From sequence record PZ402303.1: 39,329 bases of DNA; one strand, written 5' to 3'. Of this stretch, positions 568-20,363 are shown in pieces (the stretch's first letter is position 1; each line of letters begins with the position of its first letter). The DNA comes from a phage. Under the pieces are notes generated by a model. The model saw only the letters and a program-made list of their open reading frames with translations. It had not been told where the DNA came from and did not search any database. A program made the position numbers and the translations under genes.

Positions 568-1011
568 ATGCTCAAGAATTTAAAGAGCTACGCCATAATC
601 GCTGCGTTTGCCTTGGGTATTACCCTTGCGTATAACCACGGATATGACAAAGCTAACACTAAATGGGAACAGGAGGTGCACAATGAGTACGTTAAGAAAG
701 TTGAGGCGACTGCGGATAAACAGGCTGCTCTCAATGAAGTCTCACGACAATACCAAGAAGACCTTGCGGCGCTGGAAGGCAGCACTGATAGGGTCATTAA
801 TGATTTGCGTAACGATGGTAAGCGGCTGCGTGTCAAACTATCAGCCACCTCACGAGAACTCCAAGCTAACGGTGGATGCCTCGTTGATGGTCGAGCCGAA
901 CTTGACGAAGAGTTTAGTAAGCGTCTTATCGGAGTAACTCAAAGAGGGGATGCGTGGATTAAAGCGCTCCAAAATACAATAACTGAAATACAATCTAAGA
1001 AGGAGAAATAA
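568..1011 (+). CDS. 18.5: Rz-like inner-membrane spanin (gp18.5-like), 147 aa
   Basis: N-terminal TM helix, coiled-coil body, position after gene 18; RBS GGGAGGG. Confidence 0.85.
   Translation: MLKNLKSYAIIAAFALGITLAYNHGYDKANTKWEQEVHNEYVKKVEATADKQAALNEVSRQYQEDLAALEGSTDRVINDLRNDGKRLRVKLSATSRELQANGGCLVDGRAELDEEFSKRLIGVTQRGDAWIKALQNTITEIQSKKEK
683..937 (+). CDS. 18.7: Rz1-like outer-membrane lipoprotein spanin (gp18.7-like) embedded in +1 frame of 18.5, 84 aa
   Basis: ATG at 683 preceded by AGGAGG; lipobox-like VSGC; Pro-rich C-terminal part; embedded arrangement as in T7 Rz/Rz1. Confidence 0.8.
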   Translation: MSTLRKLRRLRINRLLSMKSHDNTKKTLRRWKAALIGSLMICVTMVSGCVSNYQPPHENSKLTVDASLMVEPNLTKSLVSVLSE

Positions 1012-1012
1012 T

Positions 1013-1570
1013 ATGGCTGCTACAAACTCAAGAACCCGCACACTCTGGACCATCAATGGTCGCTCACCAGACAGTCGTGATGTGTATGACCACAACAATA
1101 TTGGTATTCGCGTTGGGCGTATCGACATCCCAGCTTCGGAGATGGTCAAGGTAGATGGCTACTCTAAGGTTGAATACGTTGTTCAACTTAGCGATGGCAC
1201 CACTGAGCAACATGCTACGTTCGAGACCCTTATGTCCACTTGGGGTGGCTCCGTCGAGTCTAAGCCGGGAAGCGGGTTCATGACGGTGTTCCTGAATGAG
1301 CAAAGCACTGAGCGACTCGGTATGGTTCGAATCGACGTATACAAAGAGTGGACTGGTGCTGACCCTGAACCTGAAGGTGGCATGGCTTCCTTAGTTAGCG
1401 CAACGCTTTCTGCGTCTGATAGTGAATTTGGTACACAGTTCGTGGATAGCGAAGGGAAGAGCGCTTCCGTTATGTTCCAACCTAGTAACATCGACGGGGC
1501 TGTATCTAAGACCGACACTATCAAGGCTCTTGAGAAGCGCATTGATGCCTTAGAGAAATCTGCCAAGTAA
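1013..1570 (+). CDS. Hypothetical protein, 185 aa, no recognised family; mildly acidic, beta-rich with C-terminal amphipathic helix (KALEKRIDALEKSAK)
   Basis: Strong RBS AAGGAG 7 nt upstream of ATG; tightly packed between 18.5 stop (1011) and gene 19 RBS; no counterpart at this locus in T7 as I recall it. Confidence 0.7.
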   Translation: MAATNSRTRTLWTINGRSPDSRDVYDHNNIGIRVGRIDIPASEMVKVDGYSKVEYVVQLSDGTTEQHATFETLMSTWGGSVESKPGSGFMTVFLNEQSTERLGMVRIDVYKEWTGADPEPEGGMASLVSATLSASDSEFGTQFVDSEGKSASVMFQPSNIDGAVSKTDTIKALEKRIDALEKSAK

Positions 1571-1585
1571 CAATAGGAGGCCACA

Positions 1586-3343
1586 ATGTCTACTCAAGCA
1601 AACAAGAATGCGCTCATCGTGGCGCAACTTAAGGGTGACTTCGTGGCCTTCCTGTTCGTCTTATGGAAGGCTCTGAACTTACCTAAACCAACCAAGTGTC
1701 AGATTGATATGGCACGTACACTCGCTAATGGCGACCACAAGAAGTTTATCCTACAGGCGTTCCGTGGTATCGGCAAGTCCTTTATCACCTGTGCGTTCGT
1801 CGTGTGGGTCTTATGGCGTGACCCTCAACTTAAGGTGCTCATCGTGTCTGCCTCTAAGGAACGTGCTGATGCTAACTCCATCTTCATCAAGAACATCATC
1901 GACCTCCTTCCGTTCCTCTCTGAGTTGAAACCTCGACCGGGACAGCGAGACTCCGTGATTAGCTTCGACGTTGGCTTGGCGAAACCAGACCACTCACCCT
2001 CTGTGAAGTCTGTAGGCATTACTGGTCAGTTGACTGGTAGCCGTGCTGACATTATCATCGCAGATGACGTTGAGGTTCCCGGCAACAGTTCTACAAGCTC
2101 TGCTCGTGAGAAGCTGTGGACACTGGTAACTGAGTTTGCTGCGTTACTTAAGCCGTTACCTACCTCTCGTGTTATCTACCTTGGGACACCTCAAACCGAG
2201 ATGACTCTCTATAAGGAACTTGAGGATAACAAAGGGTACAGCACGGTAATCTGGCCAGCACAGTATCCACGTAATGATGCTGAGGCTCTCTACTATGGGG
2301 ACCGCTTGGCTCCGATGCTTAAGGCTGAATACGATGAGGGCTATGAGTTACTTCGTGGTCAACCTACTGACCCTGTTCGATTCGATATGGATGACCTCCG
2401 TGAACGTGAACTCGAATATGGCAAAGCTGGCTACACTCTTCAGTTCATGCTTAACCCGAACCTTAGTGATGCCGAGAAGTACCCGCTACGGCTCCGTGAC
2501 GCTATCGTGTGCGCTGTGGACCCCGAACGTGCCCCATTGTCTTACCAGTGGTTGCCGAACCGTCAGAACCGCAATGAGGAACTCCCTAACGTTGGTCTTA
2601 AGGGTGATGACATCCATGCGTTCCATACGTGCTCTTCTCGTACCGCTGAGTATCAGTCTAAGATTCTGGTCATTGACCCAAGTGGTCGTGGTAAGGATGA
2701 GACCGGGTACGCAGTCCTCTACTCACTTAACGGTTATATCTACTTGATGGAAGTCGGTGGGTTCCGTGGTGGTTACGATGATGCTACCCTAGAGAAGCTC
2801 GCTAAGAAGGCCAAGCAGTGGAAGGTACAGACAGTCGTCCATGAGTCCAACTTCGGTGACGGTATGTTCGGTAAGATTTTCTCTCCGATTCTCCTGAAGC
2901 ACCATAAGTGTGCCTTAGAGGAAATCCGTGCTAAGGGCATGAAGGAGATGCGAATCTGCGATACTATCGAACCGTTGATGGGTGCGCACAAGCTGGTAAT
3001 TCGTGATGAGGTTATTCGTGAGGACTACCAGACTGCTCGTGACCTTGATGGGAAACATGATGTTCGCTATAGTGCGTTCTATCAGATGACCCGTATGACC
3101 CGTGAGCGAGGCGCTGTGGCACACGATGACCGACTTGATGCTATCGCATTGGGTATCGAATGGCTACGCGAGGGGATGCTTGTAGACAGCCGTGTAGGTG
3201 AAGAAGAGATGACCCTTGAGTTCCTTGAACACCACATGGAGAAACAGACCATTGGTGGCGACCAGATTCATAGCTATGATGTAGGAGGTGTGGACATCTA
3301 CTATGAGGACGATGGGGACTCTAGCAGCTTCATTGAGTGGTAA
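1586..3343 (+). CDS. 19: Large terminase subunit / DNA maturase B (gp19), 585 aa
   Basis: High similarity to recalled T7 gp19 ([30 protein letters not shown]...TSFIEW); Walker A-like GIGKS. Confidence 0.95.
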
Positions 3344-5036: not shown

Positions 5037-5495
5037 ATGATTTTCACTAAAGAGCCTGCTAATGTCTTCTATGTACTGGTGTCAGCTTTCCGTTCCAACC
5101 TCGACGATGAGGTGAATATGAGTCGTCACCGCCACATGGTAAGCACTTTACGTGCCGCACCGGGTCTTTATGGCTCCGTTGAGTCAACCGATTTGACCGG
5201 GTGCTATCGTGAGGCAATCGCAAGCGCACCGACTGAGGAAAAAACGGTTCGTGTACGCTGCAAGGACAAGGCGCAGGCACTCAATGTTGCACGCTTAGCT
5301 TGCAATGAGTGGGAGCAAGATTGCGTACTGGTATACAAATCACAGACTCACACGGCTGGTCTGGTGTACGCTAAAGGAATCGACGGTTACAAGGCTGAAC
5401 GTCTGCCGGGTAGCTTCCAAGAAGTGCCTAAAGGCGCACCGCTTCAAGGTTGCTTTACGATTGATGAGTTCGGTCGCCGCTGGCAAGTACAGTAA
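5037..5495 (+). CDS. 0.3: S-adenosyl-L-methionine-cleaving anti-restriction protein (T3-type gene 0.3 SAMase / SAM lyase), 152 aa
   Basis: Near-identical over full length to recalled T3 SAMase (MIFTKEPANVFYVLVSAFRSNL...GRRWQVQ); first early gene after A promoters; RBS GAGGT. Confidence 0.9.
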   Translation: MIFTKEPANVFYVLVSAFRSNLDDEVNMSRHRHMVSTLRAAPGLYGSVESTDLTGCYREAIASAPTEEKTVRVRCKDKAQALNVARLACNEWEQDCVLVYKSQTHTAGLVYAKGIDGYKAERLPGSFQEVPKGAPLQGCFTIDEFGRRWQVQ

Positions 5496-15012: not shown

Positions 15013-16964
<1,952 letters not shown>

Positions 16965-16966
16965 AT

Positions 16967-16989
16967 CAATACAACTCACTAATGGGACA
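16967..16989 (+). promoter_or_regulatory. Phage RNAP promoter (phi4.3-like)
   Basis: CAATACAACTCACTAAT-GGGACA with hairpin GGGACAGACACTCTGTTCCC. Confidence 0.7.
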
Positions 16990-17032
16990 GACACTCTGTT
17001 CCCATTTATCAATCCGCTTAAGGAGAATCACA

Positions 17033-17245
17033 ATGTTTAAATTCATCAATACTCTTGGTAAGCTGTTAGTTAAAATGTACTTCCGTGAAGCTAAACGTCT
17101 GAACGACAAGGCACGTAAGGACGCTGAACAGGCTCAACGCTTGGCGAAGCAGGCACGTCTACTGTCTGAAGATGCAAGTGCTGGCGTTACGTCTGCTGCT
17201 AAGATTGCAGCGAAAGCAACCGACCTCAACAAGTTCTTCCTGTAA
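17033..17245 (+). CDS. 4.3: gp4.3-like protein, 70 aa
   Basis: MFKFINTLGKLLVKMY.REAKRLND.ARK resembles recalled T7 gp4.3; RBS AAGGAG. Confidence 0.8.
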   Translation: MFKFINTLGKLLVKMYFREAKRLNDKARKDAEQAQRLAKQARLLSEDASAGVTSAAKIAAKATDLNKFFL

Positions 17246-17424
17246 TGGTTACGATAACCCTTGTGCTCACTCTGATAACTGTGAGCGGACAAACAATAAG
17301 TCAAGTCCCTATCACGGCACCGAAGGCTGAGGCATACGAAATATGCGAACAGCAAGGGCGCTCATGGTCTAAGGACTTGATGAAGAACGGCAGGGTTTTC
17401 ACTGCCAACTACAACTGTATCTAA
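17245..17424 (+). CDS. Small protein with signal-peptide-like N-terminus, 59 aa
   Basis: ATG overlaps 4.3 stop (TAATG, coupling); hydrophobic N-terminus MVTITLVLTLITVSG then polar region with 2 Cys. Confidence 0.4.
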   Translation: MVTITLVLTLITVSGQTISQVPITAPKAEAYEICEQQGRSWSKDLMKNGRVFTANYNCI

Positions 17425-17438
17425 TAGGAGTACACAAC

Positions 17439-17741
17439 ATGGCTATTAAATTCCCCGGTAACACTATCCGTCTGTCCGACACCATCGACCAGTATGCTCG
17501 TCGGGTGCACATCAACGTCCGTAATGGCAAGGTCACTTTGGTCTACCGCTGGAAGGACCATAAGTCCACCAAGGCGCACACACAGCGTGTGACTCTGGAT
17601 GACACACAGGCAGGTCGTCTGCTGGCTTCCGTTGCTGTAGCCGCTACTGTGGCTGTAGGTGAAGACAATGTGCGTCAGGTTCTGCTGGGTAAGACCGTGG
17701 AGTCTGAGGGCAACATGCTTGCTGACAAGTGTGAAGAGTAA
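17439..17741 (+). CDS. Hypothetical protein, 100 aa (positional gp4.5 analogue)
   Basis: RBS TAGGAG; clean ORF followed by RNase III-type hairpin. Confidence 0.7.
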   Translation: MAIKFPGNTIRLSDTIDQYARRVHINVRNGKVTLVYRWKDHKSTKAHTQRVTLDDTQAGRLLASVAVAATVAVGEDNVRQVLLGKTVESEGNMLADKCEE

Positions 17742-17744
17742 GAG

Positions 17745-17786
17745 TTAAACTAAAGGTCATCTTAACGGGTGGCCTTCGTGATTAAC
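17745..17786 (+). promoter_or_regulatory. RNase III-type hairpin (R4.7-like)
   Basis: aaactaaaggtcatcttaacgggtggccttcgtgattaac. Confidence 0.5.
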
Positions 17787-17789
17787 TTT

Positions 17790-17812
17790 TGTATGAAATC
17801 TATTCAACTCAC
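17790..17812 (+). promoter_or_regulatory. Phage RNAP promoter (phi4.7-like)
   Basis: CTATTCAACTCACTAAT-GGGAGA. Confidence 0.7.
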
Positions 17813-17830
17813 TAATGGGAGAACAACAAT

Positions 17831-18229
17831 ATGCGTAATCGTAATGTAATCGAAGCTGAAATCTCTAAGCTGCAAGCTGAACTGGCTGATGTCAAAGAGT
17901 ATGAATGTGCTCGTGACTCTGCGGTACACATCCTGAAGAACTTAGGGTGGACTCGCTCCCGTGGTCAATGGGTGAAACCTGCCAAGGCAAACACCAAGCT
18001 GTTCGATAAGGACACCATGACCCACATTAAGGCTGGTGACTTCTGCGCATCAACTGAGACATCATCTCTATGGTACGTGCGCACGGTCGATGGCAACATC
18101 TGCTGGTGCTCACGAGTGTCCCGCATTACTCCTAACGGAACCTTAGTGACCAGCAACAACGTTGGAATCAAAGCTGAGAACCTGAAGGTAATCAACGTGA
18201 AAGACTATATGGGATACACCCATCGTTAA
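17831..18229 (+). CDS. Hypothetical protein, 132 aa (positional gp4.7 analogue)
   Basis: Initiating GGGAGA region serves as SD; N-terminal coiled-coil-like segment, Cys-containing C-terminal half. Confidence 0.7.
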   Translation: MRNRNVIEAEISKLQAELADVKEYECARDSAVHILKNLGWTRSRGQWVKPAKANTKLFDKDTMTHIKAGDFCASTETSSLWYVRTVDGNICWCSRVSRITPNGTLVTSNNVGIKAENLKVINVKDYMGYTHR

Positions 18230-18248
18230 ACTTTAAGGAGTAAACACA

Positions 18249-20363
18249 ATGTTACTATCCGACATCGAAACAAACGGGTTGCTGCACAACGTTAGTCAAT
18301 TTCACTGTGCGGTGACTTACGACTACACAACTGACCAGTACATCCGTTACCGACCTGATGACTTTGGGGCGTACATTGATGCACTCGAAGCCGAGGTTGC
18401 TCGTGGTGGTCTCATTGTGTTCCACAACGGTCACAAGTATGACGTTCCTGTTATCGAGAAGCTGGCGAAGCTGATTCTGAATCGTGACGTTAAGTTCCCG
18501 AAAGAGAACGTCTTGGACACCTTAGTGATGTCCCGACTGATTTACTCTAACATCAAAGACACTGATGCTGGTCTGCTGCGTTCTGGCAAGCTGCCAGGTA
18601 AACGCTTTGGCTCTCACGCTCTTGAGGCGTGGGGCTACCGCTTAGGCGAAATGAAGGGTGAGTACAAGGACGACTTTAAGAAGTCACTGGAAGAGTCTGG
18701 TGATGAATACGAAGACGGGATGGAGTGGCTGTTCTTCAACGAAGACATGATGGAATATAACGTTCAAGACGTTGTAGTCACCAAGGCACTCTTTGAGAAA
18801 CTGTGTAGCAACACTTTCTATTTCCCGAACGAGACACCCGCTGGAAGCACAGAAGCAGAACGTTTCTGGAACGGTAGCCTTGAGGCTGTCAAGCTGGAAC
18901 ATGATGCTGCATGGTTGTTAGCTAAGATGGAGCGTAACGGTTTTCCTATTGACATTAAGTCTCTTGAGAACCTGTACGCAGAACTCGCTGGTAGACGTGG
19001 TGAGCTACTCGTAGAGTTAACCAATACGTTTGGCTCATGGTACTCCGCTAAGGGCGGTACTGAAGCATTCAGGCATCCTCGTACCGGAAAGCCGCTCACC
19101 AAGTATCCTCGTGTGAAGTACCCGAAACAGGGTGGTATATTTAAGAAGCCTAAGAACAAGAAGCAACGTGAAGGCTTAGAGCCATGTGAGTTGGATACCC
19201 GCGATTACGTTGAGGGTGCTCCGTATACTCCGGTTGAGCACGTTGTGTTTAACCCTTCGAGCCGAGACCACATCACTCGTGTTCTCACCAAGGCTGGTTG
19301 GGTTCCCGTTGAGTTCACCCCAAGTGGTGCACCAAAGGTAGACGATGAGGTCTTAGAGCACGTTAAGGTAGACGACCCTGATGCACAGCGTTGCATTGAG
19401 TTGATTAAAGAATACCTTATGATTCAGAAACGTATCGGTCAGGTTGCTGAGGGTGATAACGGCTGGCTCCGAATGATTGGAGAAGATGGTCGTATTCACG
19501 GAAGCGTTAACCCTAACGGTGCGGTAACTGGACGTGCAACCCATAGTTTCCCTAACGTGGCACAGGTGCCTTCTATCCGTGCTGCTTATGGCGAACCTTG
19601 CCGTGCTGCTTTCGGTGCCGAGCACAACATGAAAGACGGTAAGCCAGACCCTTGGATTCAAGTTGGTGTGGATGCGTCCGGCCTTGAGCTACGTTGCTTG
19701 GGCCACTTCATGTATCGTTATGATGAGGGTGAGTACGTTGAGACTATCCTCACTGGTGACATCCATACGAAGAACCAATTGGCTGCGGGCCTACCAACTC
19801 GTGACAACGCTAAGACATTTATCTATGGGTTCCTCTATGGTGCTGGCGCTGCGAAGATAGGACAGATTGTTGGTGGTACTGCCGAAGACGGTAAGCGACT
19901 CATAAAGAACTTCCTTGAGCAAACCCCTGCTATCGCTGCATTACGTGAAGCAATCACAGGGACACTCGTCAAGGACTCTAAGTGGGTTGGTGGTGAACAG
20001 AAAGTAACTTGGAAGCGCCGTTGGGTTCGAGGCTTGGATGGTCGTAAAGTACACGTCCGTAGTCCTCACGCTGCGTTGAACACCTTGTTGCAATCTGCTG
20101 GTGCTCTGATTTGTAAACTGTGGATTGTAGAGACTGAGCGTCTGTTACTGGAAGCTGGCCTGAAGCATGGCTGGGATGGTGACTTTGCGTATATGGCTTG
20201 GGTACACGATGAGATTCAGGTAGCTGCACGTACTCAAGAGATTGCCGATAAGATTGTAGAGTTGGCACAGCAAGCAATGCGTAATGTGGGAGACCACTTT
20301 AACTTTAGATGTCAGTTAGATACCGAAGGTAAGACTGGCGCAAACTGGAAAGATTGTCACTAA
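18249..20363 (+). CDS. 5: DNA polymerase (gp5, family A) with 3'-5' exonuclease domain, 704 aa
   Basis: Same length as T7 gp5; exo motif DIE(T/A)N, FHNGHKYD, pol motifs ...KTFIYGFLYGAG and WVHDEIQ. Confidence 0.97.
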   Translation: MLLSDIETNGLLHNVSQFHCAVTYDYTTDQYIRYRPDDFGAYIDALEAEVARGGLIVFHNGHKYDVPVIEKLAKLILNRDVKFPKENVLDTLVMSRLIYSNIKDTDAGLLRSGKLPGKRFGSHALEAWGYRLGEMKGEYKDDFKKSLEESGDEYEDGMEWLFFNEDMMEYNVQDVVVTKALFEKLCSNTFYFPNETPAGSTEAERFWNGSLEAVKLEHDAAWLLAKMERNGFPIDIKSLENLYAELAGRRGELLVELTNTFGSWYSAKGGTEAFRHPRTGKPLTKYPRVKYPKQGGIFKKPKNKKQREGLEPCELDTRDYVEGAPYTPVEHVVFNPSSRDHITRVLTKAGWVPVEFTPSGAPKVDDEVLEHVKVDDPDAQRCIELIKEYLMIQKRIGQVAEGDNGWLRMIGEDGRIHGSVNPNGAVTGRATHSFPNVAQVPSIRAAYGEPCRAAFGAEHNMKDGKPDPWIQVGVDASGLELRCLGHFMYRYDEGEYVETILTGDIHTKNQLAAGLPTRDNAKTFIYGFLYGAGAAKIGQIVGGTAEDGKRLIKNFLEQTPAIAALREAITGTLVKDSKWVGGEQKVTWKRRWVRGLDGRKVHVRSPHAALNTLLQSAGALICKLWIVETERLLLEAGLKHGWDGDFAYMAWVHDEIQVAARTQEIADKIVELAQQAMRNVGDHFNFRCQLDTEGKTGANWKDCH

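Follow-up and report, generated by a model that had tools for sequence, protein, structure and literature searches.

Positions 17033-18229 of PZ402303.1, a phage DNA sequence of 39,329 nucleotides (nt) that is called the window here, very probably hold the standard non-essential class II block 4.3/4.5/4.7 of a T7-group phage (Berlinvirus), with one extra small gene placed exactly at the 4.3/4.5 junction. An earlier note on this DNA had marked out three consecutive open reading frames (ORFs) on the + strand, coding for proteins of 59, 100, and 132 amino acids (aa), and had located them in the 4.3-to-5 interval of a T7-like phage, the home of gp4.5; the frames and their location are borne out. 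The note also held that none of the three has recognizable motifs or a T7 match and that together they form an accessory cluster of candidate anti-defense genes. Comparison with the T7 and T3 proteins gives plain orthology for the 100-aa and 132-aa products, so the premise of non-orthology was wrong for two of the three ORFs; because they are orthologous to T7 gp4.5 and gp4.7, these supposedly accessory genes are, on sequence grounds, core members of the T7-group class II block. The anti-defense label survives for gp4.5 by homology to a known protein. The description stands for the 59-aa protein, which is absent from T7 and T3 and has no Pfam match, and its ORF is the only true accessory gene here.

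Orthologues of gp4.5 and gp4.7 in the class II block

The 100-aa protein matches PF17574, "Inhibitor of toxin/antitoxin system (Gp4.5)," with 101.1 bits against a cut-off of 27 (E 3.7e-29), its residues 8-75 covering positions 6-73 of the 89 in the profile. With BLASTP it is 67% identical to T7 gp4.5 (E 7e-32) and 66% identical to T3 gp4.5 (E 2e-37). The likeness to T7 gp4.5 takes in a full-domain Pfam match, sequence identity, and an equivalent map position, between gene 4.3 and the R4.7/phi4.7 signals, as in T7, T3, and phage 285P. The window protein differs in being 11 residues longer, with a C-terminal tail that is divergent beyond residue ~75. A profile of gp4.5 run against the Protein Data Bank (PDB) matched only designed "Cake" repeat proteins, with no stretch passing alone, and these matches were treated as compositional.

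T7 gp4.5 inhibits the Lon protease, which spares the antitoxin and neutralizes the sanaTA toxin–antitoxin defense (reviews, PMC8230891). Gene 4.5 is also more needed on CcdAB-bearing strains, and both gp4.3 and gp4.5 are reported to have weak effects against RADAR2, with plating ~70% lower when they are deleted (PMC11482910). By its homology, the window gp4.5 would bind and inhibit host Lon as the T7 protein does, keeping labile antitoxins intact, and preserving the antitoxin would in turn block abortive infection of the sanaTA type. It counts against extending Lon binding to the window protein that the 67% identity is its whole basis. Describing gp4.5 as a host-interaction or anti-defense gene appears correct, by way of a known protein and with no discovery involved.

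The 132-aa protein is 46% identical to T7 gp4.7 across its full length (BLASTP, E 3e-34) and matches phrog_4023 over residues 1-129 (E 1.6e-56), and all 116 of its 116 homologues carry PF26857 in precomputed annotation. As the earlier note had stated, the gene sits behind its own phage promoter and an RNase III-type site: a phi4.7-type promoter follows an R4.7-type hairpin, and gene 5 begins directly downstream. An alignment of 44 homologues and an AlphaFold2 model describe the protein further. The N-terminal half is nearly invariant (MRxxKVIEAEIAKLQAEL...SAVHILKNLGWT) and the C-terminal half highly variable, and in the model (mean predicted local distance difference test, pLDDT, 82) a helix (4-37) is followed by a small hairpin and a linker, which leads into a beta-barrel (71-121). 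On the model, gp4.7 would join a long, conserved N-terminal helix, which carries the motif HILKNLGW, to an SH3-like C-terminal beta-barrel that is variable, and it is probably a protein-binding adaptor, the conserved N-terminal half of which would contact a conserved partner. Compared with T7 gp4.7 the C-terminal barrel is strongly diverged, and the window clade has extra Cys residues in "FCAS...ICWCSRV." A gp4.7 profile run against the PDB returned only antibody chains, at E 0.4-0.9.

To our knowledge, gp4.7 is still without a function forty years after the T7 sequence. Its function was described as unknown as late as January 2026, and the label "HNH endonuclease" is sometimes attached to its homologues (PMC12798971); a predicted link between 4.7 and a retron fell short of significance (PMC11482910). 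The endonuclease identity was considered and rejected: the label is unsupported because no HNH-type catalytic pattern is conserved among the 44 homologues, and the structural outline now available for gp4.7 argues against it as well. The marks of an HNH endonuclease, a beta-beta-alpha-Me fold that has conserved catalytic His/Asn/His residues and, as a rule, Cys/His zinc ligands, were looked for in gp4.7 and not found.

The signals around these genes are those of a T7-group phage. A scan of the + strand of the whole window, allowing at most three mismatches to the core CAACTCACTAATGGGA, finds 12 promoter-core sites where 0.27 would be expected by chance, and these are the phage's own promoters. 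One lies upstream of gene 4.3 and one upstream of gene 4.7, and the hairpin ahead of the latter aligns with the annotated R4.7 stem-loop of T3 and with the 4.5-4.7 spacer of T7. Going by the homologous T7 and T3 signals, the phage RNA polymerase would transcribe 4.3, the 59-aa ORF, and 4.5 from the phi4.3-type promoter, the R4.7-type hairpin would serve as a cleavage site in the transcript, and the phi4.7-type promoter would supply extra transcription of gene 4.7.

The promoter cores also fall into two types. Both class II promoters flanking the block carry the identical core CAACTCACTAATGGGA, and the other 10 of the 12 sites have G instead of A at core position two. Nine of these ten G-type cores read CGACTCACTA[AT]TG[GCA]GA, and one begins GGAC. 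By analogy with class II and class III of T7, the A-type and G-type cores may be promoter subclasses of different strength.

Comparison of the locus by megablast, with window positions 16900-18300 as the query, places it among close relatives. Escherichia phage nasanit (PV245933), classified in its record under Berlinvirus, Studiervirinae, is 100% identical across the full query, and matches of 85-95% are found to phages 285P, BSP161, FE44, and BA14 and to many Yersinia phages. The annotation of 285P, at 94.9% DNA identity, runs gp4.2, gp4.3, "unknown," gp4.5, gp4.7, and gp5, and the orthologues of gp4.5 and gp4.7 are already annotated as such in relatives' records (e.g., 285P and BA14). The gene 4.3 product is 55% identical to T7 gp4.3 (BLASTP, E 4e-24). 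None of the four proteins of the block has a meaningful match in NCBIfam. The block is dispensable in the prototype, given that T7 tolerates deletion of the whole 4.3-4.7 fragment (PMC9825161), and a PhageMaP preprint groups 4.2, 4.3, 4.5, and 4.7 as low-essentiality genes (PMC11482910).

That all three ORFs could be novel, unrelated to T7 or T3 products, and together a new anti-defense island is hardly credible. It is true that the 4.3-5 interval differs from phage to phage (gene 4.7 is missing from T3, which retains R4.7), that close relatives may or may not carry the 59-aa ORF, and that the C-terminal half of gp4.7 is highly variable. However, the orthology of the 100-aa protein to T7 gp4.5 and of the 132-aa protein to T7 gp4.7 is unambiguous, with gene order, promoter, and RNase III signals conserved, which refutes a new island as far as these two ORFs are concerned. 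Public records already annotate the region, which belongs to known families, and what remains as a lead, a modest one, is the small gene of PHROG 6794, the family of the 59-aa protein.

Features of the 4.3-to-5 interval and its borders (positions in the window)
Feature	Position	Strand	Basis or remark
Primase/helicase gene	15074-16822		5' border of the interval
Phage RNA polymerase promoter core, upstream of gene 4.3	16972-16987	+	Exact CAACTCACTAATGGGA; counterpart of T7/T3 phi4.3, annotated at the equivalent position
Gene 4.3 (70 aa, DUF5471)	17033-17245	+	PF17565, E 2.5e-21, 76 bits; upstream partner in coupling to the 59-aa ORF
59-aa accessory ORF (PHROG 6794)	17245-17424	+	ORF list; phrog_6794 match
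Shine-Dalgarno AGGAG of gene 4.5	17426-17430	+	Direct sequence reading, junction alignment; at the 3' edge of the 59-aa cassette
Gene 4.5 orthologue (100 aa)	17439-17741	+	PF17574 match; BLASTP to T7/T3 gp4.5; annotated gp4.5 in 285P
RNA hairpin (53 nt)	17739-17791	+	Minimum free energy -19 kcal/mol, z -3.9; homologous to RNase III site R4.7 of T3 and T7
Phage promoter core	17805-17820	+	Exact CAACTCACTAATGGGA; counterpart of T7 phi4.7, aligned with the T7 phi4.7 region
Gene 4.7 orthologue (132 aa)	17831-18229	+	BLASTP to T7 gp4.7; phrog_4023; own promoter and hairpin upstream
DNA polymerase gene (gene 5)	18249-20363		3' border of the interval

The 59-codon gene and its junctions

The 59-aa protein belongs to PHROG 6794, a family of 59-60 aa proteins from Studiervirinae that includes the "unknown product" of BA14 and 285P and hypothetical proteins of Kp1, kpssk3, and vB_EcoP_F. 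It matches phrog_6794 over its full length (E 1.9e-25, residues 1-59 on positions 1-60 of the 62 in the profile). Nothing sets the window protein apart from this family: its sequence matches the 285P protein exactly, and over aligned residues 14-59 it does not differ from the BA14 copy.

The ORF starts on the A of the gene 4.3 stop codon TAA, giving a TAATG overlap at 17243-17247, and no Shine-Dalgarno (SD) sequence was found in the 20 bases upstream of it. Together these make translational coupling to 4.3, which the earlier note had proposed, a fair reading. As the ORF lacks an SD of its own in the window phage, the protein would most likely be made by re-initiation at the overlap after translation of 4.3.

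Purifying selection acts on the 59-aa ORF, and conservation of its frame marks it as a real gene. Eight family sequences from four lineages were compared, and frame, start, length, and stop are kept in all eight, with 34-58% amino acid identity between lineages. Synonymous sites are saturated between genera. The ratio of nonsynonymous to synonymous substitution rates (dN/dS) is 0.12 between the window and pO103, 0.33 between Kp1 and K16PH164C3, and 0.17-0.28 in more distant pairs. Conservation across genera at saturated synonymous sites, together with dN/dS of 0.12-0.33, indicates more than a chance frame. An ORF that is no gene at all, open by accident in the 4.3-4.5 spacer, could account for the missing SD in the window phage and for the several records that leave the 59 codons unannotated. 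Against this, the full frame with its start and stop is conserved at these dN/dS values in the eight sequences of four lineages, and the ORF does have its own SD in vB_EcoP_F, YSYH, and pO103, so that a chance frame is practically untenable.

The gene is found in 77 of 50,697 phage records by tblastn, with an equal count from two different queries. By host, the carriers comprise 38 phages of Klebsiella, 29 of Escherichia, 5 of Salmonella, 2 of Erwinia, 2 of Enterobacter, and 1 of Citrobacter, and by lineage they are Berlinvirus, Przondovirus, Kayfunavirus, and one Citrobacter phage. Since gp4.3 occurs in 472 records, the gene is present in about one-sixth of those bearing gp4.3. None of the 39 Yersinia-phage records among the matches to the region has it. 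The BASEL phages CarlSpitteler and ErnstBeyeler do, and the ORF is unannotated in both, as it is in JSS1, pO103, vB_SEqdws-315, and some Klebsiella phages.

A word-indexed homologue search with the 59-aa protein gave three clusters, and a filter-free HMMER scan of 1.8 billion cluster representatives gave three short proteins (59-60 aa), in both cases with no bacterial or annotated relatives. HMMER matches in giant repeat proteins were set aside as low-complexity and spurious. Literature searches found no paper on the ORF.

The distribution of the gene is cassette-like, and the junctions show it being present or absent cleanly. In the Berlinviruses PYPS50 and P694, which lack the ORF, the 4.3 stop runs directly into the SD of 4.5 (CTGTAAGGAGTA...ATG); in the window and 285P, the ORF plus a fresh TAATAGGAGT lies between those same points. 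In pO103 the left junction is 12 nt longer, which uncouples the ORF from 4.3. The same clean presence or absence is seen within Kayfunavirus, where vB_EcoP_F and K1F differ by a single clean insertion consisting of the ORF (L005:2446-2654 vs L013:1424-1442), flanked in vB_EcoP_F by a perfect 16-nt direct repeat of gene 4's TAAGGAGTGACCAATG. In the Przondovirus Kp1 the ORF is at the equivalent 4.3/4.5 junction with GGAGTTCTTCTAA(A)TG on either side (L004:2447-2660). In both Kp1 and vB_EcoP_F, then, the ORF lies between 15-16-nt repeats of the downstream gene's SD-ATG, which look like target duplication or recombination at ribosome-binding sites. The gene would spread as an ORF-only cassette by recombination at gene boundaries.

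Its neighborhood is constant in one respect: the gene immediately preceding the ORF on the 5' side is gp4.3-like (DUF5471-like) in each of the four lineages examined. The Citrobacter phage YSYH has the order 4 / 4.3 / ORF / 4.5 / 4.7. In Kayfunavirus the gp4.3-like gene is upstream of gene 4, and the ORF follows 68 nt past it with a copy of gene 4's ribosome-binding site. An obligate partnership with gp4.3 was considered and rejected. The gp4.3 proteins of Berlinviruses with and without the ORF are 98.6-100% identical, and a gp4.3 that stays nearly identical either way argues, at the level of sequence, against such a partnership. With gp4.3 essentially unchanged, and with the spacing and the ribosome-binding-site copy of Kayfunavirus, the linkage of the ORF to gp4.3 is positional and not demonstrably functional.

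The Kayfunavirus spacer after the gp4.3-like gene (L005:2394-2461, L013:1372-1439) also contains, in alignment, a conserved inverted repeat, GGGATGGGACCATGAGTCCTGTCCC. The repeat lies a short way ahead of gene 4 and may act as a terminator or be cut by RNase III.

Predicted fold and location of the 59-aa protein

The preferred reading, and the probable one, is that the 59-aa protein is a cytoplasmic globular mini-protein of beta-beta-alpha-beta topology. The best AlphaFold2 model (pLDDT 92.5) has strands at 2-12 and 15-25, a helix at 30-47, and a last strand at 51-58; the 2-12/15-25 hairpin forms a sheet with 51-58 and packs on the helix. In this fold the hydrophobic N-terminus would supply strand one of the three in the sheet, which lies against an amphipathic helix. 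Helix 30-47 is indeed amphipathic, with a moment of 1.06 at 100 degrees against 0.24 at 180 degrees. Independent models in BFVD of homologues from Klebsiella phage vB_Kp168 and Escherichia phage Vec13, which are 52-55% identical to the window protein, agree with it at template-modeling (TM) scores of 0.97 and 0.89. Across the family T3, L6, L8, T9, L10, G15, I18, V21, and P22 are invariant despite an overall identity of just 35-55%, as are two cysteines, C34 and C58. Strand periodicity over residues 2-12 favors none of the models, since the two faces are both hydrophobic (moments 0.76 and 0.62).

Several points weigh against this assignment. Four of the five AlphaFold2 models reach a pLDDT of only 60-67, and the alignment behind them consists of three sequences. 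A Foldseek search of the model against the PDB gave no significant match (best E 0.35), and the neighbors of the model in BFVD are all uncharacterized phage proteins of 56-70 aa. The protein has neither a Pfam nor an NCBIfam match, and no experiment or annotated homologue bears on its function. Features compatible with export also remain, namely the uncharged hydrophobic stretch of 12-13 residues, the small residues before Q/P16, and the two invariant cysteines. A profile search of the family against the PDB likewise gave nothing better than E 0.4.

The earlier note had called the protein signal-peptide-like. The hydrophobicity and length of the N-terminus support that description, while the positively charged n-region is missing. 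The N-terminus, MVTITLVLTLITVSG, has a mean Kyte-Doolittle value of 2.5 over residues 2-13 (range 2.1-2.5), a stretch long enough for a Sec h-region of about 7-15 residues. The N-terminal 26 residues are uncharged in seven of the eight sequences, with the first charge at 27-30; the exception is kpssk3, with H2 and R14. Nearly all bacterial Sec signal peptides are marked by a positively charged n-region (von Heijne), and no K or R stands ahead of the hydrophobic core in any of the eight family sequences. The absence of a basic N-terminal residue and the placement of the N-terminus in a predicted beta-hairpin together make a Sec signal peptide the less likely reading. A lipobox of the form L-[AS]-[GA]-C was not found in the family, which has no Cys before residue 34.

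On the export reading, which is unlikely, residues 1-15 would form a Sec signal peptide removed by a cut after S-G, leaving a mature peptide of 44 residues. Folded in the periplasm and closed by a C34-C58 disulfide, this peptide would target the envelope; it might, for instance, mediate superinfection exclusion or block a host factor of the periplasm or membrane. Several features fit such a protein. Residues 2-13 are uncharged and hydrophobic. The sequence [V/A/T/G/S]13-x-G15 before Q/P16 puts small residues at what could be -3 and -1 in all homologues, in keeping with the small-residue rule, although the same S-G is the turn of the predicted hairpin. In the predicted topology one invariant cysteine sits where the helix begins and the other where the last strand ends, so the two could be adjacent, and the insertion free energy summed over the best 19-mer on a simple Hessa scale, +2.9 kcal/mol, suits a signal-peptide core better than a membrane anchor. 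Compared with bacterial Sec (type I) signal peptides, then, the protein shares a hydrophobic core of ~12 residues followed by small residues before a possible cut. It also departs from them. A basic residue precedes the core in no family member, and within the core the beta-branched V, I, and T (5-9 of 12 residues) prevail instead of L and A. Conservation of the N-terminus equals or exceeds that of the remainder (T3, L6, L8, T9, and L10 again), which is atypical for a signal peptide. Finally, AlphaFold2 and the independent BFVD models alike place residues 2-25 in the sheet of a compact globular fold, as a beta-hairpin. The signal-peptide reading is in sum a weak one.

A small inner-membrane protein, with residues 1-25 spanning the bilayer (N-out) and the charged C-terminal 34 residues in the cytoplasm, would fit the lack of charge in the first 26 residues (R14 of kpssk3 being the exception), and the K or R at position 27 in most members would follow the positive-inside rule. 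Yet only ~13 residues are strongly hydrophobic, residues 14-26 being polar (S, G, Q, T, P), an invariant proline (P22) would sit in mid-span, the same +2.9 kcal/mol speaks against insertion, and the structure predictions are globular. A membrane anchor is accordingly very unlikely.

Taken as a cytoplasmic globular mini-protein, the 59-aa product would bind or modulate a host or defense protein, by analogy with other small class I and class II proteins of the T7 group, and would bring a conditional, host-dependent advantage. Such host-dependent value would explain the gain and loss of the gene. T7 Gp2, the 64-aa RNA polymerase inhibitor, is of similar size and likewise encoded by an early or middle gene that is non-essential; the resemblance is one of kind, as a small binding protein, and does not extend to membership. 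A relationship to Gp2 was tried and rejected, as Foldseek against chain 4lk0_M gives only E 2.1 and TM scores of 0.30/0.34.

A further-reaching interpretation, which we consider quite improbable, treats the ORF as a self-contained, horizontally moving one-gene cassette for a new kind of host-interaction or anti-defense mini-protein. The cassette could land at gene starts and duplicate the recipient's SD-ATG, coming to lie beside the gp4.3-like gene even where that gene is upstream of the primase gene. In one version the protein could act with gp4.3, for example against RADAR-type or other ATPase-based defenses, gp4.3 having a weak reported effect. In another it could be an unusual factor of the periplasm, exported with an uncharged, non-canonical leader and containing a disulfide bond; no such factor is known to us from class II genes of the T7 group.

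Gene order, annotation, and significance

Compared with the canonical T7 map, the genes of the window follow a circularly permuted order (568-3343 and 5037-5495): an Rz-type spanin (PF03245) and the large terminase (PF22530) stand at its start, ahead of the early genes. These early genes include a T3-type S-adenosylmethionine lyase (PF23780) in place of the Ocr-type gene 0.3 of T7.

Upstream of the block, a 140-aa ORF in another frame (16542-16964) overlaps the 3' end of the primase/helicase gene and is a gene 4.2 homologue (PF17576/DUF5480, E 3.6e-18). The nasanit record shows merely a 53-codon piece of it, and the 285P record shows the full gp4.2. In the PYPS50 record, the gp4.5 orthologue carries the label "tail tubular A-like protein."

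For annotation, the value of these results is that a false lead is corrected: the cluster is the familiar 4.3-4.7 block of T7 and no new anti-defense island. The 59-codon gene makes a cheap knock-out candidate because it occurs in about one-sixth of gp4.3-bearing records, is often left without annotation, and is clearly under selection. Its gains and losses, flanked by copies of the neighboring genes' ribosome-binding sites, illustrate the shuffling of single ORFs among T7-like phages.

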